This document shows positions 6,529-62,853 of a stretch of 64,000 nucleotides of DNA, one piece after another. Every line of letters begins with the position of its first letter. Position 1 is the first letter of the stretch. The notes under the pieces were generated by a model that did not search any database, was not told where the DNA came from, and worked only from the letters and a program-made list of their open reading frames with translations. The stretch is from Savitreella phatthalungensis (Eukaryota): the NCBI GenBank assembly GCA_051599415.1, contig AP039705.1:186001-250000 (forward strand), in the 5' to 3' direction. A program made the position numbers and the translations under genes.

Positions 6529-7851
6529 TCAGACACCCTTGTCGAGGATGTTGGTGACGAGACCAGTACCGACAGTACGGCCTCCTTCACGGATGGTGAA
6601 TCTGGATCCTTGCTCTAGGGCGATTGGGTGGACAAGCTCGCATTGGAGATCGACTGTGTCGCCCGGCATGACGAGTTCTCCCTCTGGTGCACCCTCCTTG
6701 CGGGTCAGGACGATGGTGACGTCTGCCGTGCGGATGAACATCTGTGGGCGGTAGTGGTCAGCAAATCCTGTGCGGCGGCCTCCTTCGTCCTTTGTCAGGA
6801 TGTAGAAGGATGCGTCAAACTTCTTGTGTGCCTTGACGGTGTTGGGAGCGGTGATGACCATGCCACGACGGACCTGCTCGCGCTTGATGCCACGGAGCAG
6901 GAGACCGCAGTTGTCGCCGGCCGTCGCTGCGTCCAGCTCCTTCTTGAATGCCTCAACACCAGTGATGGTGGTCTTCAGCGGTGGTCCGAATCCGACAATC
7001 TCGACTTCCGCTCCCTTCTTCAGCTGTCCACGCTCGACGCGGCCCGTGACGACCGTACCTCTGCCAGAGATCGAGAATGTGTCTTCGCACGGCATGAGGA
7101 ACGGCTTTGCGAGGTCACGCTCTGGCACAGGAATGTAGTCGTCCACGGCTGCCATCAGCTTGTCGATGGCCTGTTCGCCGATCTCTGGGTCACGTCCCTC
7201 GAGAGCGGCAAGTGCGGAACCCATGACGATCGGCGTATTGTCACCATCAAAGTCGTATGTGGCAAGGAGCTCGCGCATCTCCATCTCCACGAGCTCGAGC
7301 ATCTCCTTGTCGTCTACGGCATCCACCTTGTTGATGAAGACCACAAGCTTCTGGATACCGACCTGCTTGGCCAGCAGCAGGTGCTCGCGTGTCTGTGGCA
7401 TTTGACCGTCCGTGGCAGAGACGACGATGATGGCACCGTCCATCTGGGATGCGCCAGTAATCATGTTCTTGATGTAGTCTGCGTGTCCCGGGCAGTCGAC
7501 ATGGGAGTAGTGACGGGAGGCTGTCTGGTACTCGACGTGTGCAGTGGCGATGGTGATACCACGTGCCTTCTCTTCAGGTGCCTTGTCGATCTGGTTGTAG
7601 TCCATGAAGGATGCGCCTCCCTTTGCAGAGAGGACCTTTGTGATGGCGGCTGTGAGCGTGGTCTTGCCATGGTCGACGTGGCCGATAGTACCGATGTTGA
7701 GATGAGGCTTTGACCGGTCGAATGTAGCGTGACGGCGGCTTGCAGGGATAGCCGATGTGGATGTTGCGACTCTTGAGCATGAAAGAGTTGCTGGCCTTGC
7801 GGCTAGCGACTGGGCTGTATGCCTCAATAGACCAAGGACCGATCTGGACAT
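6529..7851 (-). CDS. TUF1: Mitochondrial elongation factor Tu
   Basis: [29 protein letters not shown] motifs. Arg/Ser-rich presequence from ATG 7851. Confidence 0.97.
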
Positions 7852-12548: not shown

Positions 12549-12876
12549 GGTCTCTCACAACTCCAGAATCCATCTCGGTACGTGCATCCGTGTCCGTGCA
12601 TATCTCGTGTTTAAAACCTTCTGAACACAATTCAGATCAATCCCTACCCTTGCACGCACCGTCCTGCAACGATCCACATAACACTAAACAGCTGAGCAGG
12701 GGTCTGGATCTCTTACCATAGACGCGCTTGCTTTTATCATCCCCCCGGCTGCTTCATTCGTCGCTCTTGAGCCACTCCACCCTTCTCCCGTACTCAAATA
12801 AACAGGCGCTCTCTCTTTGTTCCATTAGCAGCTTCCACGGGATCGAGCCTGATCGGCTGGCTTGGGGTCCCAAAGC

Positions 12877-13920
12877 ATGGCGCAGGACACAATGACGGCC
12901 GCCAGGGCTCTCCAGACCTCTCTGGATGCAGTCTTTGTCGGTCTAGGGAACCTGTTCTACGAGCGTAACAAGGCGATCAAGCGCAAGGCGGACCCGCCCG
13001 CGCACCTGCTCGCTGCATGCAGTCGGCAGGTCCACAAGGGCAAGGACGATTTCCTCGACCACCTGGACCTTCTCGAGATCAAGCTCAACCGTGCTGAAGA
13101 AATCCTCGAGCGAGAACACCGTCGGAGACTCGAGCGCGGTGACGACGCCCTTCAGAAGTCAGGTGGTGGTGCTGGGTCGAATGGGAAGGAGTCGAAGACT
13201 GCGATGACACCGGGTGGTGATAGTGTTGGTGGGACGGCGGGTGGCGCGCCTGGATCTGCAGGCAGCAAGGGTGAGCACACTGCCAATAGCATCAACTCTG
13301 TACCTGCAAGCGCAGACACACCTGGCAGCAAAGGCGGTATACCAGCCGCCACACCTGCATCCATCAACACCGTAGGCGCCGGCATGACACCGGCAGATCC
13401 ACCAGGCATCGACACAAAGGCACTCGCGAGCTTGGAAGTTGCTTCATCAGGACAGGAACACGTGCAGGGTCAGGGACAAGAAGATGGTCTTGGTGGTGGT
13501 GAGATGCTGAACCCGGACGATCTGATGGATTTCCCTATGCTGGAGAACCCGCTCGAGGGATTTGATCTCGGTGGTGACGGCATGCTTGACGTGTCGGCGC
13601 CGGCTGATGGTCTCGCCGGCGTCACGGGCACGGGATTAGGCTTGACGCCTGCGAACGCCGGACTCGATGCTGATGGCGATCCTGCAGCAGCCGGCCTTAC
13701 CGTCGAGACTGCACGTGACAGCTTGGCAGATATCGGCGCGCCTCTGACGGGCATGTCAACAGGCACGAACGGCGGGCTAGGTGGCGGCAATCCCTTCGAT
13801 GGCCTCTACTTTGGCGACGAAGGTGAAGACGGCGGCGATGGAGCAGCAAACCTCTTTGATGGCTTCCTCGAAGGAGCCGACGGTGGAGCGTTTGACTTTG
13901 GCTCGATGATGCAGGATTAA
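12877..13920 (+). CDS. Uncharacterised protein: N-terminal helical/coiled-coil region and acidic Gly/Asp/Phe-rich tail (possibly Mediator Med2-like)
   Basis: 347-codon ORF from ATG 12877. Helix 'DFLDHLDLLEIKLNRAEEILERE'. Acidic-aromatic C-terminus resembles an activation domain. The Med2 assignment is a guess. Confidence 0.6.
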   Translation: MAQDTMTAARALQTSLDAVFVGLGNLFYERNKAIKRKADPPAHLLAACSRQVHKGKDDFLDHLDLLEIKLNRAEEILEREHRRRLERGDDALQKSGGGAGSNGKESKTAMTPGGDSVGGTAGGAPGSAGSKGEHTANSINSVPASADTPGSKGGIPAATPASINTVGAGMTPADPPGIDTKALASLEVASSGQEHVQGQGQEDGLGGGEMLNPDDLMDFPMLENPLEGFDLGGDGMLDVSAPADGLAGVTGTGLGLTPANAGLDADGDPAAAGLTVETARDSLADIGAPLTGMSTGTNGGLGGGNPFDGLYFGDEGEDGGDGAANLFDGFLEGADGGAFDFGSMMQD

Positions 13921-22105: not shown

Positions 22106-23961
22106 GACTAGTTGATCACAGACAGACTAATAATCAACTGATGTCTTCCTACAGATGGATGTATGCGGCGACTGAGAATTGCTGAAGTGGGTTTAGTTTG
22201 CACTGTCTGAACACTGTGTAGCCTTTGACGTCCTGGTTTGTCGGTCAAGGCCGCTTCACGTGTATGTTATGGTGGCATCGATCCTTTACGAATCAGATCG
22301 AGAGTAATGAAGCTCAAGCTAAAGCTGGTAGCACAGTATCCTCACGCGTATTGTGCATATAATTCAGATACCTGTGTCTCAATTAAGTGATTGACGATGA
22401 CGATGACCTATACCCATTGGCCAACGTGCCCCTCACGCTGATATCAAGCAAGGTAACTATGCATGGATGGTGTACCTGCACTACTGAACCTATTGCCCAC
22501 CGTGGATTTATGACTAGGTTCTGACTAGGTGGAAGAGGGAGAAAGTTGGGTGTGATGGCTTAACGCGAAATTCGGATCTTCCGGCAAAGCAATCCCAGCC
22601 CAGTCAAACATAAAGGCAAGGTGAGGTAGGGTAGACCAGGGTAAATGAGAAATGAAGTGCGCGTCAGAGACAAAAGGGAAATGGGACGATAAAGCGCGTC
22701 TGACACGCGAATCAAGGAATTTCAAATATCCTCCAAATCCAACCATTATATTTATAGCATCCAACATTTTTGATATCAAATCATGCATGAATCAATCCTA
22801 ACCTGGCAGCTCAAAATTGATTCAGCCGTTGAAGTGAAAATGTTACCTGGTATATCCATGGTTATGCAATTTAATCGGATCCACTTGCGAGTGGTTTGGG
22901 AGTGACCAAATGATATCAACGGCTGAATCTAGCAACACTGGATAGTATCAGGATTCAATCTCCGAGTGGGTAAACCAATCGCCGCACTTCTCTCGGCCAT
23001 TGTAACCTTTCTCACTTTTTCAAACAGAGTAGTAACTGTCACAAGGTGAATCTCCAGCAATCCAAGATTTACGGTGGGATATTCACACTGTCGTTATATA
23101 TGGTTCTCCATTGTCATGAATCTACAGAGCAATAGTCTAAGCTCTGCGTACAGACTTGACTGTTTTCCTGGTAGGCTGCCACTTCACTATCTCCAGCGGT
23201 TGTCGGACAAAATGCTCAACTGAGTCAAATTACCTTTGGTTCTCCCTCACTGCAGGTCCAACTACTGGCTGTCCTTAGTTACTAGACTTATGTCTTCCTT
23301 CTTCCTCCTGCTTCGCTTTCTCCCGTTTGACCGCTGTAGCCCTTTATCATGGCTTCCAACACACTCAGTCTGTAGAGGCGGTGACGGGAGAAATGACTGT
23401 AGGGGATATCATGTAGACCTTCCGCGATGAGCACGCAAGAGATAGTCCACCCTTTACCCCACGCATCAACTGCAACCTAAGCCTAGTTAGAGAGAGTTGA
23501 GCCGGGGCTTTTTGTTCAAGTCTTTACTTGCATGCACTGACTGACCAACTGAGTGACGGACTGGCTCTCATTGCTTTCTTTCCATACTCTTTCACTCGCT
23601 TGCCAAACTACCTCAATCGTTCGTGTGCTTGTCCCAGGTGATACATCACAAAATGGCCGGATAGCTCCCCACCATCTTATAATCCCCGGGTCTCGTTCCC
23701 TACCGCATACTATCCGTGGTCTATGCCTCACTGCCTATAGGTCATCAAAATCACCATCATTCAGAAGTTTCGAAAGGCCGCACGGCGGCCGGGAGCAAGT
23801 CAAAAGATAAGGGTCAGGCGAGCCGTCGCCAATACGGCTAAGAACGATTGATCGTCCTCACAGCCACGAACACACCTTGTCACGGAAGATCAAGGATCCA
23901 CATTCGTTTCTGAATAAGATCTTGAACAATACTGCAAAGACAATCGCCGGCATCCATACCG

Positions 23962-26049
23962 ATGAACTTCAGCCGCACGACTGGGCTGTATGATCCATTT
24001 GTCGATCTGCAAACTCACCAGCCATACTCGCATGGTCAACAAACCACAGAAGAGGCCCAGTTGCCATGGCAGACACAGCAGCAGGCTCCGGGAGGTTCTC
24101 GAATGAGACGAACACAATCTCAGCAGCAGATGGGAGTCGCTGGCCGCAGACGATCTCGAGCGTCCACGATCTCGTCAGGTGCAGGTGCAGCAGGTCTGCC
24201 GCCGAGCACTGCCGCAAAGACGAAGGCCAATCGACCACGAGCCATCAAACTGCCGCCGCAGAGCTTCAGCTCCGGTTTCCCGTACTCCGCAGGCTCGATT
24301 CCGGCCGTCTCGTCACCGCTCGCAACGCCGTCGATCTATGCTGGCCAGCACGGAGCGACATCGCATGCAATGTCACGCTCGGTCAGTAACAGATCTTTCG
24401 CTGGACACCCTTACATGTCGACGTCCGCGATTGAGTCCCCAGTCCGGTCCGAGTTCGGTTTTGGGTTCGGGTTCACAACAAGTGACGGCCCGTGGCCAGC
24501 AGCGTACGACCTCACCATGGGCGCTTCCTCCATTGTGGCACCGCACCAGTCGATTGCGGGACATGCCCAGCCGCATCACCACAGACATCACTCTGTCGCT
24601 GGTGGCGAGAAGTTCGATCGCCCACTTTTCCGCAGGACAAAGTCAATCAAGCTCGACAGATCTCTACCTGGCACAAACAGCGGCAGCACAACTCCGACAA
24701 AGAACGTCTCCATGATCATTCGGGACGGTGTAGCGCAGCTGGTAGAACAGCCGGCCAAGGCCATCGAGCGCCTAGCAATCCGCTCGCCAACAGTCGAGCG
24801 TGGCGGATTTCAACTTCAGCGCACGCCCAGCAGTAGTGTAGCCGCTGCCGGATTGGAGTCACAACGTCAGAGCGCTATCGGCGGAGCTGAGTTCGACAAG
24901 AGCCCGATCAAAGCACTCTCACGTCAGAGCAGCCTTGCGATGGCTCGCTCATACTCTGAAGTGTCCCTGTCGGCTGTCGCAGAAGAACGCCTCGCTTCGT
25001 CGCTCAGACTCGAAGATGCGTGCGAGCAGATGGGCTCTCCATCGCAACAGCAGCCGGCACAAATGTCTGCCAGTTCGAAAGAAGCTTCCAAGACTAACGC
25101 TCGTGCCCGTGCCACATCAACCATCTCGTCCATAAGCGTTCGTACACCCACGTCTTCGCCGCCTTTGCCACAATCCGTTCTGGCTGCGCTGTACGCGCAG
25201 GACGACGAGGATGATAATGGCGGGCGCGACTCTGCGACAGACTCGGACGCGTGCTCTGATCCAGGCATGCCTTCGTATACACTCGATCAAGCTCAGCGCG
25301 ATAACGCGTCGCCTGCCAATGCAGAGGAAGATGCACGCGCGGCAGTGAAGAAGTTGTTTGACCGTCAGCGTCAGCGACAAGGTGGAGTCCCAGTGCTCAC
25401 AGGCCAAAGCCAGCATGAGATGATGGACGTGGATCTGCCCATGTGGTCTGGGAACTTGGCCTCCGAAGACCTGCTTACGGCCGGCCTCGGCCGCACCGAT
25501 GGATTTGTCACCATGCCACTCACGCCGTCTTCGCAACGCGTCATCGAGCAAGCTCGTCGCAAGCAAGCTGCCAGCTCGCACAACAACCCATTAGCATGCG
25601 ACGGCTGTGGCATGGTCTTCAGGTCAGAAGAACTGCTGCTGCGTCATGCCAGCAACCACGTCCAGCTGCACGCGCCCTCCTTACACCCAGCTTCGCGCCC
25701 GTCGGCATCTGGTCTTGGCTGCACGCTCGCACCGAAGTTGCCGTCTGCGCAGCAAGCCTTCGACGCCAGCGATTTCTGGCGTCCCGCAGAGCTCGACATC
25801 GACATGGATCTGCTGGACCACGACATGTTTGCAGACAACACGCGGTTCGACAGCCACGCAGACACGGCAGCAGCAAATAAATCTTCGACCTCCATGCTGC
25901 AACCCTCGCCATTCACAGAGGACATTGAAGTCTTCAATGGTCCCACTCCGCAAGCCGCAAGACAGAGTGCGGTGACAACACAAGCCAAAGATGGCGATGA
26001 AACTGAGGACGAGGAGCTATTCGCCGACATTCTCCTTGGCAATGACTGA
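23962..26049 (+). CDS. Ser-rich low-complexity protein with a single C2H2 zinc finger
   Basis: 695-codon ORF containing CDGCGMVFRSEELLLRHASNH (C-x2-C-x12-H-x3-H). Confidence 0.7.
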   Translation: MNFSRTTGLYDPFVDLQTHQPYSHGQQTTEEAQLPWQTQQQAPGGSRMRRTQSQQQMGVAGRRRSRASTISSGAGAAGLPPSTAAKTKANRPRAIKLPPQSFSSGFPYSAGSIPAVSSPLATPSIYAGQHGATSHAMSRSVSNRSFAGHPYMSTSAIESPVRSEFGFGFGFTTSDGPWPAAYDLTMGASSIVAPHQSIAGHAQPHHHRHHSVAGGEKFDRPLFRRTKSIKLDRSLPGTNSGSTTPTKNVSMIIRDGVAQLVEQPAKAIERLAIRSPTVERGGFQLQRTPSSSVAAAGLESQRQSAIGGAEFDKSPIKALSRQSSLAMARSYSEVSLSAVAEERLASSLRLEDACEQMGSPSQQQPAQMSASSKEASKTNARARATSTISSISVRTPTSSPPLPQSVLAALYAQDDEDDNGGRDSATDSDACSDPGMPSYTLDQAQRDNASPANAEEDARAAVKKLFDRQRQRQGGVPVLTGQSQHEMMDVDLPMWSGNLASEDLLTAGLGRTDGFVTMPLTPSSQRVIEQARRKQAASSHNNPLACDGCGMVFRSEELLLRHASNHVQLHAPSLHPASRPSASGLGCTLAPKLPSAQQAFDASDFWRPAELDIDMDLLDHDMFADNTRFDSHADTAAANKSSTSMLQPSPFTEDIEVFNGPTPQAARQSAVTTQAKDGDETEDEELFADILLGND

Positions 26050-27573
26050 ACTGCAGCCACATTGGCGGAATCGCATGAGAAGCGTCACCGATCAGTCACA
26101 CATCACATCTATGCATACGCACATACACGCATTCGCATATACATTTACACTATTCTCCAGCACGTTGATGGCAGGAACACTTTACACGGCCACCGCCGCA
26201 TATAAATAGAAACGAACAAGAGGACCAGAGACAAAGGAACAGGAGGGACGGTACAGGGAGGATTAGAGGGAAATCGGATTATAGCACTAGCGTTACTTAT
26301 CATCGTTTCATCAGGAGAATCGCATCTTCTCGTTGCATCACCGACAAGGCCACGGACTCGTCCTGTAGCTACAGTCGGGCCTATGTCCTCGCCCTAATTC
26401 AGGTTCGGGACAGGACTCGAGCTGTATCGGTCGGGTGCTAATCCGCTCAATCAGCCAGTGCGACTTTCCTAAAAATAGTCACGTGTCGCATTCGAACCGG
26501 TGCATATATCGAGCGGATGACAATTGTAAGGCACGATCGATTCAATCTTTCCCTGCCAGTATTAGAAACAAGACACCGTCAATCATTCTTCATGACTTTG
26601 ACCCTGCCATCGCAGGCGGCAAATGCAAGTCCCGCAGGCGTCCTGTCGACCTTGCTCTGCCTGACACCTCCGTTGTTCCAGGTCGATCTTGGTATTGCGA
26701 CATGACGCCTTTCATTGCTCGCGGAATTTGCTTGTCTCTGTGTACGCGGGAGGTGCTGTACGTGAAGGTGGTCGAGATGAAGCGATGACGATCTATTCGA
26801 TAGGGACAACCGACTATTCTATTGGCTTGAAGATACTCGCGGATATGGTGCCACCGATAGTAACCTCGGCACCACAGTCTCTGAGCTTCCATCTCCACCA
26901 TGCCTTGCCCAACTTCCCCCTTAGCAGGTGACGCGTTCTCAGACAACGCATCAGTCTGCTGTCCTGCTTTCGCACGCGCCATACAGGGCAGGTACTGTCG
27001 ATGCGTTTCGTGGATCGCGTCACCGTACGGGTTGTCGACGTGTTTGTGAAGTCGAGGACTGGATGAAAGAGTAATGGAGACCCTGTGACGATACTAAATC
27101 CGACAATTTGCACGTCAGGGCGAGGCGTTCCCTTCCAATGGGAACGACCCCATGAGCGTTTCTTTTCTATACCCAAATTTCCGAGGGTCTCCTTTGCTCT
27201 ATCATTCGTCGAAGCCGCGGTTTCGGGAGTGTCTTGCGCAGCAGATAGCTTTTGGATCACGAGAATGAATCCTTCTACAACTCTACAGCGACGCAATCTC
27301 TTTTTCAAGCGCGAGTGCATGACCATGTTGGTGCGGCAAAAGAATCATCTAGTGTGTCGTGTGTCTTCGAACACGTGCATCTGGGCTATGTGGCTTTAAT
27401 CGCTACGGCTTTTTCCCCACATTTTTCGTCCACGCGTGAAGCCCTCGGCGTGGGACCCAACCGCGCCACGGCTGCAGCCGATCCCACATCTGCCTGCCTC
27501 TTCTTCGGACACAGGATGAAAAGGTGGCCAGCCAACTGTATCTTGAACCCGAGAACCTCCATTGGCCGTCGAC

Positions 27574-28485
27574 ATGTCTGCTGACGCCGCTGCTTCTGAG
27601 TTGACGCTGGAGAAGCATGCGCTTCCCGGGATGACGGACGGTCTGGCCTCGTCTGCGGGCAAGGCCTTCCACCTGAGCGTGATCACGATCCGTCGTCCTC
27701 GGAAACTGAACGCGATGTCGCACTTCCACTACACGCGGCTGCGCCAGCTGCTCGAGCAGGTGGATGCGGACGACTGTACTGCCGCGACACTCATCGTCGG
27801 CATCGGCAAGTTCTTCTCCGCCGGCGCAGACTTTACAAGCATCAACAGCTTCGACGAGGCAGACAAGAAAGCGGGAGCCGACAAGGCGGCCGAGATGGAG
27901 CCAAAGTCTGCCTTCATCGCACGGTTCGCAGCGGGTAACGGCGATATCACTCAGGCCTTCCTCAACCACAGACATCCACTCTTTGTCGGCCTGAACGGTC
28001 CGGCGGTCGGGGTGTCTGCGGCGATGGTCGCTTACGCGGACGTGGTTGTGGCGAGTCCGTCGACGTATTTGCTGACGCCGTTTGCGTCGCTCGGACTGGC
28101 GCCGGAGGCAGGCGCTTCCTTCATGCTTCCCTACAAGCTTGGACCGATGGTGGCGAATCGGCTGCTGCTCGGAGGCGAGGCCGTCAGGTATGATGACCTC
28201 GCCCGTGCTGGCTTCATCGCACGCACACTCAGCGATGCTGACGACGCCAAGAAGGGAGAGGGCAGCTTCGCCAGGGCTTGCATCGACACCGTCACCGAGT
28301 ATCTGAGCGATCGCAACTTGAGCAGCCTTAGGTGGGCCAAACAGCTCATGACCAGATCGATTAGGGACAAGGTGGAGAGTCACAATTGGTCTGAGGTCCT
28401 CCTCGCAGGACAGGCATTTGGTTCGGGCGTACCGCAGTCTGAGTTCGCCAGACTGGCGAGCGGCGCTAAGCGCCACAAACTTTAA
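27574..28485 (+). CDS. ECI1: Peroxisomal delta3,delta2-enoyl-CoA isomerase (crotonase family)
   Basis: 'GKFFSAGADF', 'LNGPAVGVSAA', 'LLTPFASLGLAPEAGAS'. C-terminal PTS1-like -HKL. Confidence 0.9.
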   Translation: MSADAAASELTLEKHALPGMTDGLASSAGKAFHLSVITIRRPRKLNAMSHFHYTRLRQLLEQVDADDCTAATLIVGIGKFFSAGADFTSINSFDEADKKAGADKAAEMEPKSAFIARFAAGNGDITQAFLNHRHPLFVGLNGPAVGVSAAMVAYADVVVASPSTYLLTPFASLGLAPEAGASFMLPYKLGPMVANRLLLGGEAVRYDDLARAGFIARTLSDADDAKKGEGSFARACIDTVTEYLSDRNLSSLRWAKQLMTRSIRDKVESHNWSEVLLAGQAFGSGVPQSEFARLASGAKRHKL

Positions 28486-28550
28486 ATGCCGTCGTGCGTG
28501 CTCTCTCGAGTTGTAGCCCACTTGATTTGTTATGTACATGTGAAAGCTAT

Positions 28551-30578
28551 CTAGATGCGGATGATATCAACTCGCGTCCTGTTCCACAGCTCGTGCGGAA
28601 TCAGTGTACCGTCTTGCGGTGTGTCTGTGGTTGACTCGCGTGGACGAATGACGACCTTTGCAAAAGTTCCTGCGCCTCGACGCTTGGCCAGGGTCCCCGG
28701 ATTGATCACGACAGTCCCGCTGATAACCCGAGCGAATGCGCTCATCTCAGACGGCAGCAGCATGATGTCTGGTGTCCGTGTACCGAAGTCCGCCAAGCCG
28801 CTGTATCCCCAATCAATGCTGGCAGACAATCCGCCGGCCGAGCCAGCATTGCCACTTGTTGCTGCGCCCAATGGGTCGGCTAAGACTGCCAGGTCGGCGT
28901 CAGTCTCGTCAGTCGCAACAGGCACCGTTTGTGTAACAGCAGCCTGCTGTGTTGGTGCTGGAACAGGATAGAGTGGGAAGAAGCGGCGCTGCTGGAGGAC
29001 GTGGGCGGCCGCACGTGCCAACGCATTCTTCTCCGGCGGATCTCTGGAGCACTCTGACAAGGCGAGATGCTTCACAATATCGAGCGAGCATGCGCCGAAT
29101 GAGGCCTCGTCAAGCGAGAACAGTGCTGGATTCGGTAAACATCTCGCACCAGATGTTTTTGACATGCCCAAAGCCGAACGCGGTAGGGCGTCCTGAGGAA
29201 AGCACGGATGTCTCGTCAGGACGTCGAGCGGATGAGGAATAATCAGCAGGCCAGGCAACCCACGCAGGATCGGGGAGACGAGGACGCGGAACAGATCATC
29301 CAAGGTCTCGCATGGTGAGTCGTCACCGTCTTCGAGCTTGATGGTTTCAGGAGCATCGAAGTCTCCCGATCTGAGCATCGGATGTGAAACATCGAGCAGG
29401 GGTCCAAGCAAGATGATCTGGTCTGGCTTGTGTTGAGCGGCAACACTTGCAAGCTGCCTGAGAGGTTCAAATAGTAAATCCGAGTCGGTCGTGAATGGAC
29501 CAGCGGCCACGATACAGGTTGTCGGCGACTGGGCAAATTCAGCCGGAGCGCTTGCAGAAGGAGGCAGCAGAGGCACGTTGATGATCTCCTCGACACGGAA
29601 CGCGGCACCTCCTGCGTTGCTGCCGCGGAGTGCGACCAGCTGGCCCGGGAAAAGTGAGAAGCTAGATAGCTGGGATAGATCCAGCCGTGTGCGAGAGCCT
29701 GTCCCTAGACGCCTGGAGGTCTCGAGCAGCACTGACTGTGGATTCAGTCTGCCGCCACCAATACTGTCACAGACTATGCGACCGATGCAGAGCACCGTCT
29801 GCTGTGATTCTCGGGCGGGATTCGCAAGCTCATCTTCCGCCATATCGAGGTGTGCTAGCACAACGTCAGCCCAGCTGTCAATCTGCTCGTCCAGAATCTC
29901 CGCGGTCTCAGACAGCTTTTGATACATCGGTCTATAGCCGTACTTCTTTGGGTCGAAGTTGGCTACGAGAGCTGGCGCCACTACTCTTGACGTAGGCTCG
30001 GCAGTGATCGACCCTGGATTGAGCACCTGTACGATCGTGCCGGGTTCTTTCCGATCTCCGAAGGGTGTTTTGGGAGTTCCGAGCGAGGTGTTCGTGCCAC
30101 CGTGACGTTGCGAATTCGGTGTTGTGCTGGTAAGAGGTTTCTCATAGTCAGTTCCAGAGCGAGAAGGCGTGCTGATCGGTTGCGCGTTCGAGATGGCCCG
30201 CTTAGCGGTCGAAAGCGGTTCACGCTTCACCTTTTTTACAGGTGTCATGTCTGAGCCGAGGAAGTCATCGAATCCACCGGAGGCAAGCGCTGTTGCGCCC
30301 AGCTTCCTGCTACTAGCAGGCGTGGTACCTCCCGTTGACTGCCCAGCCCTGAGTCTTGCCTGATTCTCGAACTCGATCTGGTTTTGAATATCTTGCTTGA
30401 ACAAGGCGACATTGTCGACATTGAGCTGTGGGTCATTGCCCATCTTAAAGGTCCATGACTCCCATTTGAAGAAGAGATCATCATCTGAGATGTCGTAGAG
30501 CCTGTTGATGGACCGAAGCATGGAGGCTACGTCAGTCGAGACACCACCAAATCTCGCGACTTGCTCGAGCGTTGCCAT
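28551..30578 (-). CDS. POL12: DNA polymerase alpha-primase subunit B
   Basis: 'DLFFKWESW', 'YRPMYQKLSE', 'IGRIVCDS', 'SLFPGQLVALRGSN', 'AAGPFTTDSDLLFEPL', 'PDIMLLPS', 'INPGTL..GTFA'. Confidence 0.95.
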   Translation of the reverse strand: MATLEQVARFGGVSTDVASMLRSINRLYDISDDDLFFKWESWTFKMGNDPQLNVDNVALFKQDIQNQIEFENQARLRAGQSTGGTTPASSRKLGATALASGGFDDFLGSDMTPVKKVKREPLSTAKRAISNAQPISTPSRSGTDYEKPLTSTTPNSQRHGGTNTSLGTPKTPFGDRKEPGTIVQVLNPGSITAEPTSRVVAPALVANFDPKKYGYRPMYQKLSETAEILDEQIDSWADVVLAHLDMAEDELANPARESQQTVLCIGRIVCDSIGGGRLNPQSVLLETSRRLGTGSRTRLDLSQLSSFSLFPGQLVALRGSNAGGAAFRVEEIINVPLLPPSASAPAEFAQSPTTCIVAAGPFTTDSDLLFEPLRQLASVAAQHKPDQIILLGPLLDVSHPMLRSGDFDAPETIKLEDGDDSPCETLDDLFRVLVSPILRGLPGLLIIPHPLDVLTRHPCFPQDALPRSALGMSKTSGARCLPNPALFSLDEASFGACSLDIVKHLALSECSRDPPEKNALARAAAHVLQQRRFFPLYPVPAPTQQAAVTQTVPVATDETDADLAVLADPLGAATSGNAGSAGGLSASIDWGYSGLADFGTRTPDIMLLPSEMSAFARVISGTVVINPGTLAKRRGAGTFAKVVIRPRESTTDTPQDGTLIPHELWNRTRVDIIRI

Positions 30579-52415: not shown

Positions 52416-52636
52416 AGCTCACGTACTTGGTGATCCGTTTTGGCAGGCTTCATGGACGGTGCATCCGAAGCCAGGATGGTCTGAAACAAATTGTGTTACG
52501 TTTTACGAAGTCCGTGAAATACGATCCTCTGCAAAGCTCTCATATCTGATCTTTGAGAATCCTCTTATAAAGCGCGATCGATGCCGGTATTCAGCCTGCT
52601 TCCGAGGGTAATGACAGGCGCTCGTCATAGTGTACC

Positions 52637-53854
52637 ATGACCTACAAGATTCCGCCAGCGGCCATCATTCCATCGGACAGGCGAAGAGTTTCTCAAAACG
52701 AGACGAGTAATGCAATGAGCAATGAATCGGGGAGCGGGATCTCCCTGTCTAAGACGTGGCGCCTGCCAGCGCGCCCCAAGCCAGGTCGCAAGCCGGCGCC
52801 GGATACTCCAGACAATAAGCGCAAGCAGCAGAATCGACAAGCACAGCGCTCTTTTCGTGAACGAAGAGCTGCCAAATTACAAGATCTTGAAGGAGAAATG
52901 CGCCACACATCAGAGCAGCATGCGAAAGAGATGCATTTCGCAGAAAAAGAGAAGGAGCGATTAAGCAGCGATAATATACGCCTACGGCAAATGGTCCAGG
53001 CTTTAACTCTAGAGCTCGAGCGAGCAAGGAGCGTCGCAGCATCAATGCAGTCTGATTCGCCAAAACCACGGCCATTACGGTCATTCGATGGGCAAAGGCT
53101 CAGTATCGCAAGCGTGGTTAATCCTGAGCAACCTGCCGATGCGACCTCCATACCATCTTCGATGTCCACAGGTATACCCATGACGCCTCCAATGGAGATC
53201 ATCAGCGAACAGCCAGCGGTTCCCCAAGACAGTTGGAATCTCGACCGCGACCTGCTGGGAAAGTCTGTGCCGCTTCTGAGGAAGAAGCGCAAATTCGAGC
53301 AATCATGCGGTTTCTGTAGCGCGGGGATGCCTTGCGTATGCGACGAAGAATCCGAGGCGCTCAAGGTCGTTCGAGACACCAGTCTTGGCTGTGGCAAGGC
53401 TGACTGCTGCCGTGGTCGATCGCGCATCACACCCGATGATTCATCAACTGCGCTCAGCGCCACAGAGCAAGTGGTTGCTGGCGGGCCCGAAGGCGAAGGC
53501 GCAGTGTGCACTGGTGATCCCGGCAGTTGCGGACAGTGTCAGCGCGATCCGATGTCAACGCTTTTCTGCCAGTCACTCGCAGCAAAGGGTGTCGACTTGA
53601 TCGCAGGTGGACGGAGACCCAGGAGTTTCGCCACCTTTGAGCACTCTTCAGTTCGTGAAGACCACTTGGCTGACGACTCCTCTGCTGACACTGTGTACAT
53701 ACCTTGCTCTGCAGCTTACCAGTCCCTATCACGCCACCCGAGGTTTGGCGAAGCAGAGCTTGCCACCATTGTTGGTCTCATGCGTGTTCGGGAGGGGCGT
53801 GGCGTCGACGTCGAAAGCGTCCGATCAGCCTTACAGGAGCTTGATAGGATCTGA
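52637..53854 (+). CDS. hapX: Iron-responsive bZIP transcription factor HapX
   Basis: Hap4-like 'SKTWRLPARPKPGRKP', bZIP 'KRKQQNRQAQRSFRERR', Cys-rich regions CGFC..PCVC and 'PGSCGQCQRDPMSTLFC', 'IPCSAAYQSLSRHP'. Start could be the Met at 52712. Confidence 0.92.
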   Translation: MTYKIPPAAIIPSDRRRVSQNETSNAMSNESGSGISLSKTWRLPARPKPGRKPAPDTPDNKRKQQNRQAQRSFRERRAAKLQDLEGEMRHTSEQHAKEMHFAEKEKERLSSDNIRLRQMVQALTLELERARSVAASMQSDSPKPRPLRSFDGQRLSIASVVNPEQPADATSIPSSMSTGIPMTPPMEIISEQPAVPQDSWNLDRDLLGKSVPLLRKKRKFEQSCGFCSAGMPCVCDEESEALKVVRDTSLGCGKADCCRGRSRITPDDSSTALSATEQVVAGGPEGEGAVCTGDPGSCGQCQRDPMSTLFCQSLAAKGVDLIAGGRRPRSFATFEHSSVREDHLADDSSADTVYIPCSAAYQSLSRHPRFGEAELATIVGLMRVREGRGVDVESVRSALQELDRI

Positions 53855-55170
53855 ATCTTGGCACGCACAGGGGCCTTCTATCAGATCGATACCCGCAGTC
53901 GCTTCTGTGATTTTTGCCCAGCGACTGTGTTGTTCTTTTGGGGCCAATGATTAAAGCCGTGAGGTGACATCCAGCTTACGCAGATCGAAATCTGTGCTCT
54001 TGTTTCAACCGGGATCGTCTCCACACAAAGTCATGTATCCGTGTCTGTCAACACTGTCCCTTCTTGACAGGCGCACGCGTGGCTGTTGCGAGCCGGCGTC
54101 TCCATGAGAAAACTTACGAACATGTGGATCATTAACGCTCTTAAATGAAGATTCGTCGCCGAAAGGACGCTACATCAGCCTGGACGTCGATTGTGTCCCA
54201 GACGTGAATGTTTCGCGCTCGGTGGAATGGGTTTGATCAAGAGGCAAGCCTAAGATGAGCCATAACTTGCGACACAGGACGATTGGCCAAAATACGGAAC
54301 TAACGAGTCGGATCGCCTTTTACGGCTAAGGACACGCTTCTCATACAATGCCGATGTCAAGTGAGAAATACGGTTCGGAACGCAGCTCACGCGCTTGCCA
54401 GGACAAGAGGTCGCGCCAGTTCTGCTGTGCATGAGCGGGATGCAGCGCGCTGCTTTGGCGACCCGGTCTGAAGATGACTCGAGCAGTGGAACGCTAATGG
54501 GAGTAGACGTGGCCGAACAGCGGATGTGTACACGCGTCTGCAGTCGGCCATGCTCAGGCCGTCAGCAATGCCGGCTCGTATGATGCACATCGAGCTGCAG
54601 CTGAACAACGCAGCCGCCGATCTGAACAGCCCTGGGCAGCCATTCCATTATCTATATCGAGAGCCTTGTGCCTAGGAATTATTGCATTTTAGTACCTTTC
54701 TTAGAAGCTCCTTGATCAATCCTTTGTAACATTCCACCTCACCCTAACAGCAGGATCGTTCGCGCCCGCGTCACGCCCTCGCGCGAGGTAGACCCGATCA
54801 GCTGATATTGAGATTTGCTTCCTGCTATGCTGCATGGAAATAAACAATGATTTGGGCGTCACCGACTGCATTGTGTCGCCTCGACTCAACAGTGAAAGCC
54901 TTGCGCACGTAGAAAAGGCGCGACCGCCCGTCAGGTAGACTTACGCTCATTAGCAGGATATCGATGATTGCGCCATTATCGCACGAAGCTCGCTCGCATC
55001 GATTTCAGCTCAAGATTCAACCGTTTATGTTCACAAAACCTTTGCCACGATATCTACCGTGTCACGCGATGTCCGGACTCTCCAATGAGGATTCTCCTTC
55101 TCTCAGTCAACAGCGCAAGGCTCAGACTATCGTTGTCCCAACAAGATTCATGCGATTGTCTTCTCGATGA

Positions 55171-55524
55171 TCGAACTGAAAGTGGGCCACCCATTCGAAG
55201 TTTACAAGGTCCAGGCAAGCACTTTGGGCCTGGTGGAACACTTGGTTATGCTGTCATGCGTTTATCTTTTCAATTATCGTGTTGGTGGTCACAATCGTTG
55301 ACCTGATTCTGTTCTTCATCAAGCAACTCTTGTCTTTCGTTGTCGTGTCCACCAGCAGCACTCAGTTTTCCGCCATCTTCGTTCCGTCTATAATGGCTTA
55401 TCGGATCATGTGCAGTTGCTTCTCCGACGACGCATCCTCGCAAAACTCAATGCTCTGTGCAACTTCCGATCTTTACATCGGCGATTCTACACTACTTTTC
55501 CACGAGTGGGCCTGGAGCTTGTGA
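55171..55524 (+). pseudogene. Frameshifted, 5'-truncated inverted copy of the orphan membrane-protein gene
   Basis: Encodes RTES.PI..GPGKH, then a 1-nt deletion (GGGCC-TGGTGG versus GGGTTTTGGTGG at ~55229), then WWNTWLCCHAF...LFHE homologous to the minus-strand gene. Confidence 0.75.
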
Positions 55525-55892
55525 AAGCTGTTTGCGGCCGCTGCGCAAGCTTCATCGCCGAGTCGTGAAAGAACAATGTGAAGTCACCGATGTGAAGGTC
55601 GGAAGTTTCATAGAGCAGTGAGTATTGCCGGGATGCGTCGTCGGAGAGCCAGCTGCATATGATCCGATAAGTCATAAGAGACAAAACGAAGATCGCGGAA
55701 AACTGAGCGCTGCTGGTCGATACGACAACCAGAGACAAGGGTTGCTTGATGAAGAACAGAATCAGGTCAATGATTGTGACCACCAACACGATGATTGAAA
55801 AGATAAACGCATGACAGCATAACCAAGTGTTCCACCAAAACCCAGAATGCTTGCCTGGACCTCGTCGGATGGGCGTCTCACTTTCAGTTCGA
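55171..55892. repeat. Long imperfect inverted repeat, arms ~55171-55521 and ~55546-55892, loop ~24 nt
   Basis: TCGAACTGAAAGTG (55171) is the reverse complement of CACTTTCAGTTCGA (55879-55892). Hand alignment of 276 nt gave 36 differences (~87% identity). Confidence 0.95.
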
Positions 55893-56027
55893 GCGCTGCC
55901 TGGTCGCTCGTTTTCCTCTGCGACCCGGTCAGCCTGCGTATTCATCTCCATGGCTTGTATGTGTTTTAACTGGTCTACGTGAGTGGCTGGATCAATGCTT
56001 TTATCGCATGTCGGACTCACTATTCAT
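55487..56027 (-). CDS. Orphan small membrane protein (~164 aa, about 2 hydrophobic segments); intron 55975-56020
   Basis: CAACAAC-ATG AAT A | GTGAGT...CTCACGTAG | AC CAG splices in frame to MNNQLKHIQAMEMNTQ...WWNTWLCCHAFIFSIIVLVVTIIDLILFFIKQPLSLVVVSTSSAQFSAIFVLSLMTYRIICSW. No recognisable family. Confidence 0.65.
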
Positions 56028-56615: not shown

Positions 56616-57653
56616 ATGGGTCATCTCAACGTACAGGTTTGCAACGGCCACAATGTCGAGCTGTACACCAGCAATGCGGTGCCTGCTCCACTTCAGGTGC
56701 CTGGCTGCCACTTCGCCATCACCGCGCAGCTAGAGGGAGTGCTGACACAAGCGCATCTGGATATGTGTGAGCTACGCATATGCCTGAGGGAAGTTCATTC
56801 AATCCACAGCGTTGTGGAACATGGACAAACATTGCAAGCCGACGACGAAAAGCTGGGCGCCGCTTTGGACATGGGACATATTAACGTCATTTCTCATCCC
56901 AGAGAGCTTGCGATAAACATGTATGAACATTACCATCCATCCGATCCCCAGACGGAGGTCATACACAGGTCTACAGGCGACGATGAGCAGTGTATCTGCC
57001 TCTCCCGCAAAAACGGCCGCCAGCTCATGATGCTGAGCACTTCTGATGCCATAACGCTGAAGAGCGGACCTTGCTCATCTACAGAAGATGGTGTTCACGC
57101 AAGCCTTGCACCGGTCAACCATGGCTCACAGGCAGTAGTGCCTGGGGTCGTTCAAATGTTGGGATTCAGATTACCACTGACGACACTCATGAAGCCTTGC
57201 GTGGCTGTGCAGGTTAGTGTCACCGGAAGCATGTATCCTGATAGATTTGTCTGTCTGCGTACCTCGGAACTCGGGCGAGCCATGCAGGCCCAAGCTGTCG
57301 TCCGTGAAGGATGCCTGAAATGGGCAGAGCTTCACCCAAGTACAGGTCTCGATTCATGGTGGTATGCTCAAGAGGGACTCAACATACATTTCTACGGTCG
57401 CCGATCTACCGCTGAAGAGAGACTTCCAGCATATGAAGAAATCGCTGACTCTCGCAAAGCCAAGCGAGCTGACGTGGATGTGCGCTCGCGAAACTTCATG
57501 CGAGCCGGCAAGCGTCTGCTATATGCAAATGAATTGCTCCGCGGTCGGCTGGATTATGTAGCCTGGGACGACAAGCTTCAAGCATGGCTGGCAAAGTTTC
57601 CGGACGGGGAGCTGAAGACTGATCTCATCATGGTGAGAATCTATCCGAGCTAG
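56616..57653 (+). CDS. Orphan hypothetical protein (345 aa) with an LPAY motif
   Basis: Long ATG-initiated ORF, TATA-like TATTTAAG ~48 bp upstream. No family recognised. Confidence 0.6.
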   Translation: MGHLNVQVCNGHNVELYTSNAVPAPLQVPGCHFAITAQLEGVLTQAHLDMCELRICLREVHSIHSVVEHGQTLQADDEKLGAALDMGHINVISHPRELAINMYEHYHPSDPQTEVIHRSTGDDEQCICLSRKNGRQLMMLSTSDAITLKSGPCSSTEDGVHASLAPVNHGSQAVVPGVVQMLGFRLPLTTLMKPCVAVQVSVTGSMYPDRFVCLRTSELGRAMQAQAVVREGCLKWAELHPSTGLDSWWYAQEGLNIHFYGRRSTAEERLPAYEEIADSRKAKRADVDVRSRNFMRAGKRLLYANELLRGRLDYVAWDDKLQAWLAKFPDGELKTDLIMVRIYPS

Positions 57654-58810: not shown

Positions 58811-59287
58811 CTCGTGCTTGATTGGACATATAAGACGTATATAAAGGAAGGAGATTATACGTACTTTCTGGTCTGCAGCGGACTCTCCGTACGCGTCAGG
58901 CGAAATAGGTTAATGTACAGGATAAGGTTTTGTCCGTGCTGCTCACCATGAACCGTGATGGACATTACATTAAACTACACCTGACGACAGATGCTGCAAG
59001 CAAGATGAGCCCAGCAGGTAATTGACCCTCTCGAGTCCCAGCGACGACTGCTCATCTTTTAGAAATCGCGTTACCGCAAGATCACGAGCCCGCGCTCGAC
59101 GACGAGGTGCCAAATCAGGAAGCGATCAACGGAATCGCTCGAGCGCGTCAGTCGAAGTCGTCCGCATGGCAAGACCTCGGACTTGAGCGTCTGCTGTAGT
59201 AATAGCCTGATGAATTCATTGCAATCTCTCCTCTCGACGGATTTAGAGTTCTGTATTTTTCCGCGGATGTAATAACATAACAATGAC

Positions 59288-60742
59288 ATGGTCAATTACT
59301 CCGTACGGCAGGTGAGCGAGGTCTGCGTTTCCGGCTTGACTTTGCCATGGCAAGGTCCACTCGACGAGCCGCAGCAGGAGCTGTTAGAATATAGGCCGCC
59401 GTTGTTACGCCGACGCACACGTGCATCAACGATCACAGAGCCGAGCTCTTCACGGCACGGGCGACTTCGAAGCACACTCGGCAGACATCGGTGCAAAGCG
59501 ATTTTCGCGCTATTCGCGGATGGCGAGCGGATATATGTCTCCGAGGAGGTGAAAGGGGCATGGACGACAACGTTCTTGCCCTTTCGCTGTCAAGCCGCCG
59601 CGCGACAGGTCGAGATCCAAGTGTTCGTGCGTGCTGAAGAAGATTGGAGAAGGCTCTTGCGGAGGACGATCGATTTAACGACACTCGTACCGGTCGATCC
59701 TCTGGTTGGTCCACCTAACAGGGTTTTGTTGCACATTGGGGGTAGATGGTGCTGCGAGGGAACGCCTGAAACATCGTCGAAGTGTTCGAGCTACACATAC
59801 GCAGCCTTGATGAGGTTACTGACCGCTTCTGAATTCTGTCATGACACAGCATCCGGAACAGAGCAACTACGGCACGAAACGGCGGGCATTTTAAGGAGTT
59901 TGAAGGACGATTTCGTCCGTGCTCAAGATCGCATTCGCCGGACCACGCATGCGCTCAATATTAAACGCGCTCAAGCTAATGCGGATCGGGCTCGGCTAGC
60001 CCGAATGGCTACGCGACTAACGCAACGACGCAATGGAATGCAAGAGTGTAAGAAGAGGCATAAATCGGATGCTGTCGCGTATACTGTGGTGGTCACCGAA
60101 GTGACAAAGCGTAAGGACTTAGCCCGACTGGTGGCAATGGAAATCCGCCGCGCGCAACGAGGCCTCGTTGGGAGTTTGTCGCTGATCTACCCGATTGATG
60201 GGGGAAGACGCTCGATCCGAAGTGTGCAGCTCTTAGTGCAAAACGAGCTGACAATGGGTGCAAGCGAACCTTGCGGGTATGGCTTCCTCAGCCATCTCGT
60301 GATGTTGCTCGCATACTATCTGCAGGTGCCGCTGCGTTATCCAATGCGTTTGATGGGTAGCACAAGCTCCATACTGGATCCGGTGTCAATCATGCCATCG
60401 ACATCCGATCCCCTCTACCTTGGGCCGCCATACTCTCCGAAATTCGATCGCCGTTATCCTCTCTTTCCTGTACGCGGTACGCCGGAACGGCACCTCTTTG
60501 CACTTTTCTTACTCAATAAGAACGTTGAGCAGTTGCTGCAGGCTCGTGGACTAGTCTGCGGTGACTTGCGCGATCCTCTCGGAAACCTCAACGCTTTGAT
60601 CTTTTGGATCATGTCCATCACAGAAGAGGAGCGTGATTTCGTCCCACAAGAGGTCGGCGAAGGCCTGGAGATCGTCGATCACGCTGATATGCTCAGAGCT
60701 CGGACGCATTCCTTAGCGCGAGCAACCAAAGAGCGCGAATGA
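59288..60742 (+). CDS. UVRAG/Vps38 (Atg14-related) PI3K complex subunit
   Basis: 'RIYVSEEV', 'SYTYAALMRL', coiled coil, 'L..IYPI', 'G..SHLV..LAYYLQVPLRYP...GSTSSI.D', 'F..ALFLLNKNVEQL'. Confidence 0.85.
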   Translation: MVNYSVRQVSEVCVSGLTLPWQGPLDEPQQELLEYRPPLLRRRTRASTITEPSSSRHGRLRSTLGRHRCKAIFALFADGERIYVSEEVKGAWTTTFLPFRCQAAARQVEIQVFVRAEEDWRRLLRRTIDLTTLVPVDPLVGPPNRVLLHIGGRWCCEGTPETSSKCSSYTYAALMRLLTASEFCHDTASGTEQLRHETAGILRSLKDDFVRAQDRIRRTTHALNIKRAQANADRARLARMATRLTQRRNGMQECKKRHKSDAVAYTVVVTEVTKRKDLARLVAMEIRRAQRGLVGSLSLIYPIDGGRRSIRSVQLLVQNELTMGASEPCGYGFLSHLVMLLAYYLQVPLRYPMRLMGSTSSILDPVSIMPSTSDPLYLGPPYSPKFDRRYPLFPVRGTPERHLFALFLLNKNVEQLLQARGLVCGDLRDPLGNLNALIFWIMSITEEERDFVPQEVGEGLEIVDHADMLRARTHSLARATKERE

Positions 60743-61495: not shown

Positions 61496-61686
61496 GGCTG
61501 TCGTTCCTTTTCTCGTCGCTTCTATTCTTATAGTCGTAAATATTCTTCGTGCTCCATCCTAAAAGTTACGTAGCCATAGCAGTGCACATTCGTCAGAAAC
61601 GTGGTGAAGATCGTAAAACACCGCGCGACAGCGTGTGACCCTACACAAAGCGCAAATGGCTATTCGTGAATCGTCGAGACGGTGAG

Positions 61687-62853
61687 ATGGCTGATGGGAC
61701 AAGTGATGTCTTAACCGCTGTGGCACGACCTTCCGCTGGCAACGCGAGCGACGTACGTAATGATGGACGACAGGACCCACAAGGATCCACTGCCGGCCAC
61801 GAAACTCTGTTTGTTCGCTCGCCGACACCGATGCCTCTCTCGGGCCCGCCCAAAGGATCCCTGCGAGAAAGGCTCCGCAGAGTGCTCGGAAAACCTCCGT
61901 CCGCGATCTATGGCAATGGTAATGGCAACAAGTCACAGGACGACGTGTCAATCTCGTCAACAGCTTCGTCTGCCTCGATCATGCTCAGAAAGATGAGTGC
62001 CCAGTTGTCGAAGCGCACTGCGAGACTCGGCGGACTCTTTTCCGGCTCGAATTCGATCACCTCGCAAGATAGACAATCGCACATTGCTGCAACGAGACAA
62101 GTCAGCCTGGTGGTAGCCGAAAGGTCAGAGCCGGTGACGCACTCAGGCTTTGCTCACTTGCGCGCGGATTCTTTGTCTGATCTGCGCCATCTTCGAGGAC
62201 AGTCCGACGCGAGCGTTGCAAGCTCGAAAAGCTCCTCGCAGCGGAAACCGCTAGAGACGAGCTCGTTGGCATCGGCGAATGTGGATGACCACGGCGGCAT
62301 TGCATTTCCACGTCTATCCGAGGAGCAGACGTCTGAAAGACGACCGAGCATGCACCTTGAAAGGCCATTGCCATCAGACCTACGCCGTGAGAGCAAGGAC
62401 GCCCGTTGGACCTCCCGTTTTCGCCGTGCCCAACCCGTAGAGCCCGTGCACTTGGCGGCTGGAAGGCGCTCTGAAGCTGTACTGGTAGATCGATCACCTT
62501 ACAGGGGCAAAGGAATTCTTCGTGCGGCGAAGACTGCTCCCGTCATCTGCGACTTCAAGGTCGATTTCAGCAGCGAAGTCGATCTCACACTTGTCTTTGA
62601 GGAAAACGCACCCGAGTCGTCCGACGCAGATCAAAAAGAGACGATCGGCAGTGGACGCCTGTCCTTCAATCCTCGTGTGACAATTCACGACACATACGAT
62701 TTAGGCGAGTATGACCGTCGAGGAGACGTTGCAACGTGCAATCGTCTGACGCCGCTGCTTGCGCAGCAAATCAAGGAGGAACTTAACAGCTACAAGATGG
62801 ATGAGATGGAGGTCGCTGAGGAAAGTCGCATCTACACTCAGTTCTTTTCATAG
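61687..62853 (+). CDS. Bni4-like PP1 (Glc7)-targeting protein
   Basis: C-terminus 'LSFNPRVTIHDTY...EYDRRGDVATCNRLTPLLAQQIKEELNSYKM.EMEV.EESRIYTQFF'. Confidence 0.85.
   Translation: MADGTSDVLTAVARPSAGNASDVRNDGRQDPQGSTAGHETLFVRSPTPMPLSGPPKGSLRERLRRVLGKPPSAIYGNGNGNKSQDDVSISSTASSASIMLRKMSAQLSKRTARLGGLFSGSNSITSQDRQSHIAATRQVSLVVAERSEPVTHSGFAHLRADSLSDLRHLRGQSDASVASSKSSSQRKPLETSSLASANVDDHGGIAFPRLSEEQTSERRPSMHLERPLPSDLRRESKDARWTSRFRRAQPVEPVHLAAGRRSEAVLVDRSPYRGKGILRAAKTAPVICDFKVDFSSEVDLTLVFEENAPESSDADQKETIGSGRLSFNPRVTIHDTYDLGEYDRRGDVATCNRLTPLLAQQIKEELNSYKMDEMEVAEESRIYTQFFS

Follow-up and report, generated by a model that had tools for sequence, protein, structure and literature searches.

A near-palindrome carrying a candidate small reading frame in a Taphrinomycotina-like genome: a probable local inverted duplication

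Introduction

When a small reading frame lies directly beside an inverted copy of itself, is the arrangement put to use, as a source of double-stranded RNA (dsRNA) that silences the frame or its relatives, or is it simply what a local rearrangement has left behind? The question is raised by a near-palindromic locus in the 64-kb stretch of DNA analysed here (the whole of which is referred to as ‘the window’), where a hydrophobic open reading frame (ORF), P0001, runs from one arm of an inverted repeat across its centre and into the other. The original prediction described an orphan membrane-protein gene fused tail-to-tail with its own inverted pseudogene, and proposed that a long hairpin RNA from this locus could silence the gene itself or paralogues belonging to a membrane-protein family.

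Such a proposal has precedent in Drosophila, where hairpin-RNA (hpRNA) loci are reported to silence young selfish genes (PMC10317233, PMC10292708). As described in these reports, the Drosophila loci (Nmy/Tmy and others) are also inverted duplications of gene-derived sequence and potential sources of endo-siRNAs directed against the parent, although the fly hairpin locus stands apart from its targets, has testis expression, and has been shown genetically to suppress selfish genes. The palindrome considered here differs from Drosophila hpRNAs in that one arm would itself be the only known target.

Results

The window contains a single long inverted repeat

A search of the whole window for repeats of at least 40 nt returned one inverted pair, the palindrome, and no direct families; the pair sits at the position given by the original prediction, with ungapped arms (55231–55511 and 55557–55837) of 281 nt each that are 87% complementary. 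Similarity extends across two small indels into further outer blocks (Table 1), and gapped blastn comparison of 55171–55892 with its own reverse complement matched at 82% over 738 columns, giving a near-palindrome of roughly 720 bases overall. The spacer is indeed short, and the length of about 24 nt originally put on it falls between two ways of counting, the 45 nt that separate the ungapped arms and the 11-nt terminal loop as far as which the stem pairs inward when the minus strand is folded as RNA.

Table 1. Coordinates of the palindrome and of the reading frames within it (positions are those of the window).
Feature	Position	Strand	Details
Left arm of inverted repeat	55171–55511		ungapped core 55231–55511
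Left-arm outer blocks	55204–55228, 55171–55198		reached over a 1-nt, then a 6-nt indel
Palindrome centre	55512–55556		45 nt separating the ungapped arms; partly self-complementary
Right arm of inverted repeat	55557–55892		ungapped core 55557–55837
Right-arm outer blocks	55841–55865, 55865–55892		pair with 55204–55228 and 55171–55198, respectively
Near-identical tract	55231–55327, mirror 55741–55837		2 differences in 97 nt
ORF P0001	55487–55951	-	ATG 55951, 154 codons, TAG 55487–55489
Optional first exon (predicted)	56021–56027	-	ATG 56027; intron candidate 55975–56020
Left-arm copy P0002	55180–55524	+	114 codons bounded by two TGA stops
Left upstream frame	55085–55306	+	ATG 55085, 73 codons, stop 55304–55306

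The predicted fold of the minus strand between 55150 and 55910 has an energy of -526 kcal/mol, compared with -227 +/- 6 kcal/mol for 20 shuffles (z = -46). This potential holds for a transcript of either strand, and repeat search and folding agree on an imperfect duplex of ~340 bp, so the expectation that transcription in either direction would give long imperfect dsRNA was borne out. When the locus was compared with Rfam at E ≤ 1, the only match was to MIR1031, which scored 37 and 34 bits on the two strands where the gathering score is 100, and it is a generic long-hairpin match. A tRNA scan of the window found no tRNAs, and a scan for promoters and terminators of bacterial type is uninformative in fungal DNA.

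Divergence between the arms is greatest at the centre

Over the ungapped alignment the arms differ at 37/281 positions, by 25 transitions and 12 transversions; with 12 of 37 differences being transversions (25:12), repeat-induced point mutation (RIP) was ruled out as the cause of the divergence. The differences are unevenly spread, numbering 2, 14 and 21 in successive 93-nt thirds from the outer end to the centre, and arm identity, taken over successive steps of 30 nt, declines from 100% to 67% beside the centre, the centre itself being the most diverged portion of the palindrome. Decay that is strongest at the centre has been described for palindromes stabilised by central changes.

At the other extreme is a near-identical outer tract of 97 nt, made up of perfect runs of 44, 21 and 30 bp, compared with 35 differences in the inner 186 nt; at the rate of the inner part, the outer 93 nt would hold no more than two differences with a probability of 4e-6. 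In this outer third, one synonymous and one non-synonymous change are all that separate the arms, which places the near-identity at the nucleotide level. Similarity falls again outside 55231, and the palindrome ends, at 55171 and 55892, in unrelated flanks. Gene conversion between the arms is the likeliest explanation of the tract.

The palindrome lies in a gene-dense region of a Taphrinomycotina-like genome

Besides the palindrome, the window encodes EF-Tu, squalene synthase, RRM and PP2C proteins, DNA polymerase alpha subunit B, EFL1, Sir2, a CofD-like protein and an exosome subunit, among others, and is in this respect ordinary gene-dense chromosomal DNA. Five long ORFs of 355–707 codons (59276–60742, 61639–62853, 12853–13920 and 23926–26049, all on the plus strand, and 27403–28566 on the minus strand) had no Pfam match and may be further lineage-restricted genes.

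One of the conserved proteins, P0006 (38194–41454, minus strand), is the EFL1/Ria1 orthologue, and its best match other than itself was 73% identical, with identities of 62% to Taphrina deformans, 60% to Protomyces lactucae-debilis and 51% to Saitoella. On these protein matches, the host, a yeast-like fungus from a sparsely sampled group, belongs to a Taphrinomycotina-like lineage that has no close named relative in the protein collection.

The palindrome occupies a 2.7-kb interval between a Hap4-motif gene (52631–53854, plus strand) and P0005 (about 56616–57653, plus strand). The former, an ORF of 407 codons, contains the 17-residue Hap2/3/5-binding Hap4 motif (E = 2e-5), and its predicted product, the upstream neighbour of the palindrome, is a HapX/Hap4-type regulator. 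P0005 (345 aa) is among the called proteins of the collection and has no Pfam domain; it found no match besides itself among proteins of 193–616 aa, and is a second orphan at the locus. The interval between them is, for this gene-dense window, one of the longest to contain no long ORF, which makes an uncalled transcription unit plausible.

Reading frames remain open in both arms

The minus-strand frame that holds P0001 is open from 56023 to 55487. Residues 21–135 of P0001 come from the right arm, while its final ~16 codons and its stop are situated past the centre, antisense to the left arm, so that the original prediction had placed the ORF correctly in ending it within the left arm (55487). 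The product has two strong hydrophobic stretches, at about residues 39–70 and 72–102. Upstream, a candidate intron of 46 nt (55975–56020; GT..AG, with the 5′ site GTGAGT) would join P0001 to an optional exon that adds 10 residues in frame; the spliced 164-aa product originally proposed is thus in frame as computed, and stays a predicted form.

The left arm had been described as a frameshifted copy, a description that did not survive for the main repeat, where the frame of P0002 is open and aligns with P0001 over 97 residues without gaps (77% identical). What P0002 has no sign of is an ATG ahead of its hydrophobic part. The nearby frame that begins with ATG 55085 reads the counterpart of P0001 residues ~22–37 and then passes out of register at ~55229, where a 1-nt indel, the sole break of frame in the left arm, parts it from P0002; the 6-nt indel between the arms keeps the frame. 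‘An intact copy and a start-less copy’ is a fair description of the pair, provided that the frame is a gene at all.

A protein-coding gene is possible at this locus

That proviso is central to one account of the locus, in which the right arm contains a real, young membrane-protein gene accompanied by an inverted pseudogene, or the two arms contain convergent functional paralogues, and the palindrome is incidental. An ORF intact from ATG to stop in the right arm, and 97 codons that stay open in both arms, are what such an account would lead one to expect of the frames, although the left copy has no usable start. AlphaFold2, given the single P0001 sequence, predicted two long hydrophobic helices (pLDDT about 79–86), but any hydrophobic string gives helices, and the model overall is poor (mean pLDDT 62, pTM 0.34), its weakness making it unfit for a fold search.

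Relatives of P0001 were sought widely, and its description as an orphan held, with no real homologue among 1.84 billion proteins or in metagenome contigs. A word-indexed search of 5.8 billion proteins gave 17 word-sharing candidates, of which none scored (0/17). Two matches at E ≤ 0.001 (4e-5 and 6e-5) were obtained by phmmer from 1,835,955,588 representative proteins; both are internally repetitive and were matched over 24–41 residues, in 5 and 7 stretches, and they are for this reason read as repeat-inflated chance matches. A DNA-level scan of metagenome contigs for relatives of the arms confirmed 0/108 pattern matches, Pfam produced just a sub-threshold match to Otopetrin (16.2 bits, against a cut-off of 27.8), and the ESM Atlas yielded no usable match. 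The ESM recognition of P0001, at 1628, was under 2300, the level reached by 91/100 proteins of known families. Within the window, blastn found no further copy or paralogue of the arms; the ‘paralogues of a membrane-protein family’ that had been envisaged were absent from the window, and no such family was found in the databases searched.

Neither frame was among the proteins of a collection that does include P0005 and P0006 from the same contig, indicating that its pipeline left the ORF uncalled. Having neither a homologue nor a gene call counts against a gene, but in this lineage little weight can be placed on being an orphan, given that the best non-self match even of EFL1 is 73% identical and that P0005, a called neighbour, is also without a homologue.

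Comparison of the arms in the ORF frame lends the gene some encouragement, with a dN/dS of 0.35 (15.5 synonymous and 21.5 non-synonymous differences), arm differences distributed as 13, 7 and 17 over codon positions 1, 2 and 3, and the in-frame 6-nt indel. In neutral simulations with a uniform rate, so few amino-acid changes arose with P = 0.045–0.065, the lack of a stop in either arm with P = 0.23–0.24, and the two jointly with P = 0.014–0.019. Simulating only the inner 62 codons, which hold 35/37 of the differences, the probability of amino-acid differences as few as or fewer than those observed was 0.09–0.13. The constraint signal between the arms is not significant, therefore, once the gradient in rate is modelled. 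Codon usage in the ORF frame, at 0.08 bits per codon, was the best of six frames, but the score is ambiguous, being above 0.053 (95th percentile for off-frame chunks) and below 0.13 (25th percentile for coding chunks).

Stop-free frames of 281–364 codons also occur at 6619–7713 (plus strand), 27547–28485 (plus strand) and 52693–53538 (minus strand), each antisense to or overlapping a longer ORF: EF-Tu and the Hap4-motif gene, which are supported by Pfam, and 27403–28566, which has no Pfam match. With spurious frames of 200–360 codons lying over real genes, ORF length means little, and by itself is no evidence of a gene here.

A real, young membrane-protein gene confined to this lineage is a possible reading of the right-arm ORF, though the balance tips against it; were it otherwise, the frame would be open owing to a pyrimidine-rich strand and few substitutions. 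As an explanation of the locus as a whole, a gene with its pseudogene or paralogue and an incidental palindrome is somewhat unlikely.

Silencing by hairpin RNA is improbable

The hairpin-RNA reading holds that a read-through P0001 mRNA would fold into ~340 bp of dsRNA, to be processed by Dicer into siRNAs that silence the gene or unseen paralogues. The potential for a duplex is extreme, the outer third alone pairing perfectly over stretches of 44, 30 and 21 bp, and, since the P0001 stop falls inside the opposite arm, any ordinary 3′ UTR would be self-complementary. Long inverted repeats are, however, very common and do not imply transcription into hairpin RNA (PMC8728187), and here the arms have drifted to 13% difference, with 67% identity beside the centre. 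Palindromic loci are reported to be many of the most prolific siRNA loci of the yeast Naumovozyma castellii (PMC7528652). Dicer and Argonaute are reported as present in both Schizosaccharomyces and T. deformans, the latter being the nearest named relative, and as absent in Pneumocystis; by that report of T. deformans, RNAi is possible in this host (PMC4159005). No Dicer or Argonaute domain was present in the 30 window ORFs scanned. No second copy was present in the window and no family in the searched databases, and within that scope the right-arm ORF is the only candidate target. The published systems would make hairpin silencing possible, though not special, and we consider it improbable for this locus.

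A narrower version would make P0001, as a young membrane-protein gene, a natural self-targeting hairpin gene of an early-diverging ascomycete, its mRNA closing with the same coding body in inverted form. Every transcript would then contain a duplex of ~100–340 bp, to be cut by Dicer or another RNase III, and the outcome would be autoregulation in cis together with siRNAs that check the gene or unseen paralogues; the near-identical outer 97 bp would then have been kept for the purposes of duplex and siRNA formation. This is a more doubtful proposition still than hairpin silencing in general.

Neither a transposon nor an assembly error is likely to account for the structure

In overall shape, with long arms and a short spacer, the palindrome resembles the remains of a transposon of the foldback or MITE type, with the arms as its terminal inverted repeats. 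Its boundaries, however, share no direct repeat (55170/55171 compared with 55892/55893), and the lack of a target-site duplication at the outer ends led us to reject transposon insertion as the origin. It is moreover a single copy in 64 kb, no relative was confirmed in the metagenome scan, and the depth of the arm unitig in the read data described below resembles that of the flanks (depth not being equivalent to copy number). Very few DNA transposons are reported from Taphrinomycotina (PMC5751038), and a relic of this type is very unlikely.

Read support was examined by comparing the region with the unitig sets of four runs (X1–X4), whose kind was guessed to be DNA; none of the five runs listed for this stretch was an RNA run. 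In X1, a 579-nt unitig (55245–55823) spans the palindrome centre with 0 differences at a depth of 42 (flank pieces 46 and 59). The X1 graph is interrupted only at identical 31-mers common to both arms (55245–55260 and 55794–55837), and a 44-nt piece identical between the arms has a depth of 73, compared with 42–59 elsewhere, although depth does not equate to copy number. X1 is possibly the source sample of the assembly, and its unitig is thus not independent support. In X2, from the same sample as X1, pieces end at 55255 and resume at 55580, with an additional 172-nt piece at 55289–55460 (depth 2.8); 55461–55579 is left uncovered, and the depths of adjacent pieces are 631, 2.8 and 101, where X1 is even at 42–59. 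This uneven cover could be due to an RNA library, amplification bias or hairpin drop-out. X3 and X4, which carry another organism label, contributed short, low-depth flank pieces, 95–99% alike, and did not cover the repeat, which is no evidence of its absence.

Fold-back artefacts are exact copies with identical arms. The X2 data (no unitig over 55461–55579 and just a low-depth left-arm piece) might be thought to point to an artefact of assembly or of the library, for instance a chimeric fold-back read, but such an origin for the palindrome is hardly credible, as the arms differ by indels and at 37/281 positions and the X1 unitig crosses the centre without a difference at a depth like that of the flanks.

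Discussion

On balance, the locus is probably a fairly old, local fold-back inverted duplication of about 360 bp, present as a single copy in the window, that carries a candidate small ORF. A segment containing most of a small hydrophobic frame would have been copied in reverse directly beside itself, creating a near-perfect palindrome, the centre of which would then have diverged to a 45-nt asymmetric spacer. The arms would have come to differ by 13% through mutations of an ordinary spectrum, and the outer 97 bp would have been re-homogenised, most likely through inter-arm gene conversion. The right copy would have retained its ATG and 154-codon ORF, and the left copy, in which the frame is still open, would either have lost a usable start or never have had one. 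Any hairpin RNA would be an incidental by-product of read-through transcription, and the palindrome itself appears to have no dedicated function.

Fold-back or template-switch duplications, and palindromes modified at the centre, are characterised by an adjacent inverted copy with almost no spacer, a centre that is the most diverged part, and the lack of a target-site duplication. The palindrome shares adjacency, a tiny spacer, a diverged centre and the absence of a target-site duplication with fold-back duplications, although the mechanism by which it folded back is not reconstructable from one sequence without an outgroup.

Repeats of this shape are abundant: LIRBase lists 6,619,473 long inverted repeats from 424 eukaryotic genomes, and the palindrome fits the definition given there, of two arms and a loop capable of forming a stem-loop (PMC8728187). 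It stands out from the repeats as that database describes them only by the unusual lineage of its host and by an ORF that spans the centre. The siRNA loci of N. castellii are likewise described as short-loop genomic inverted repeats, in a compact, yeast-type genome, with transcripts that would fold into a long hairpin (PMC7528652). In that description, the loci are defined by sequenced 22–23-nt Dicer products, whereas the palindrome has been seen only as DNA, and its host, unlike the budding yeast N. castellii, is of a distant, Taphrinomycotina-like lineage. A limited literature search, which supports no claim of absence, found no endogenous hairpin-RNA locus reported for the Taphrina-like lineage.

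For annotation, the locus illustrates that a hydrophobic frame which stays open in both of two diverged copies does not suffice for calling a gene. At present the palindrome is a structural variant of an ordinary kind, one of the millions of long inverted repeats that have been catalogued in eukaryotes. Were it transcribed and diced, it would give a Taphrina-like lineage a hairpin-RNA locus that is both natural and endogenous, and would offer a clean example of gene silencing by an inverted copy of the gene itself.
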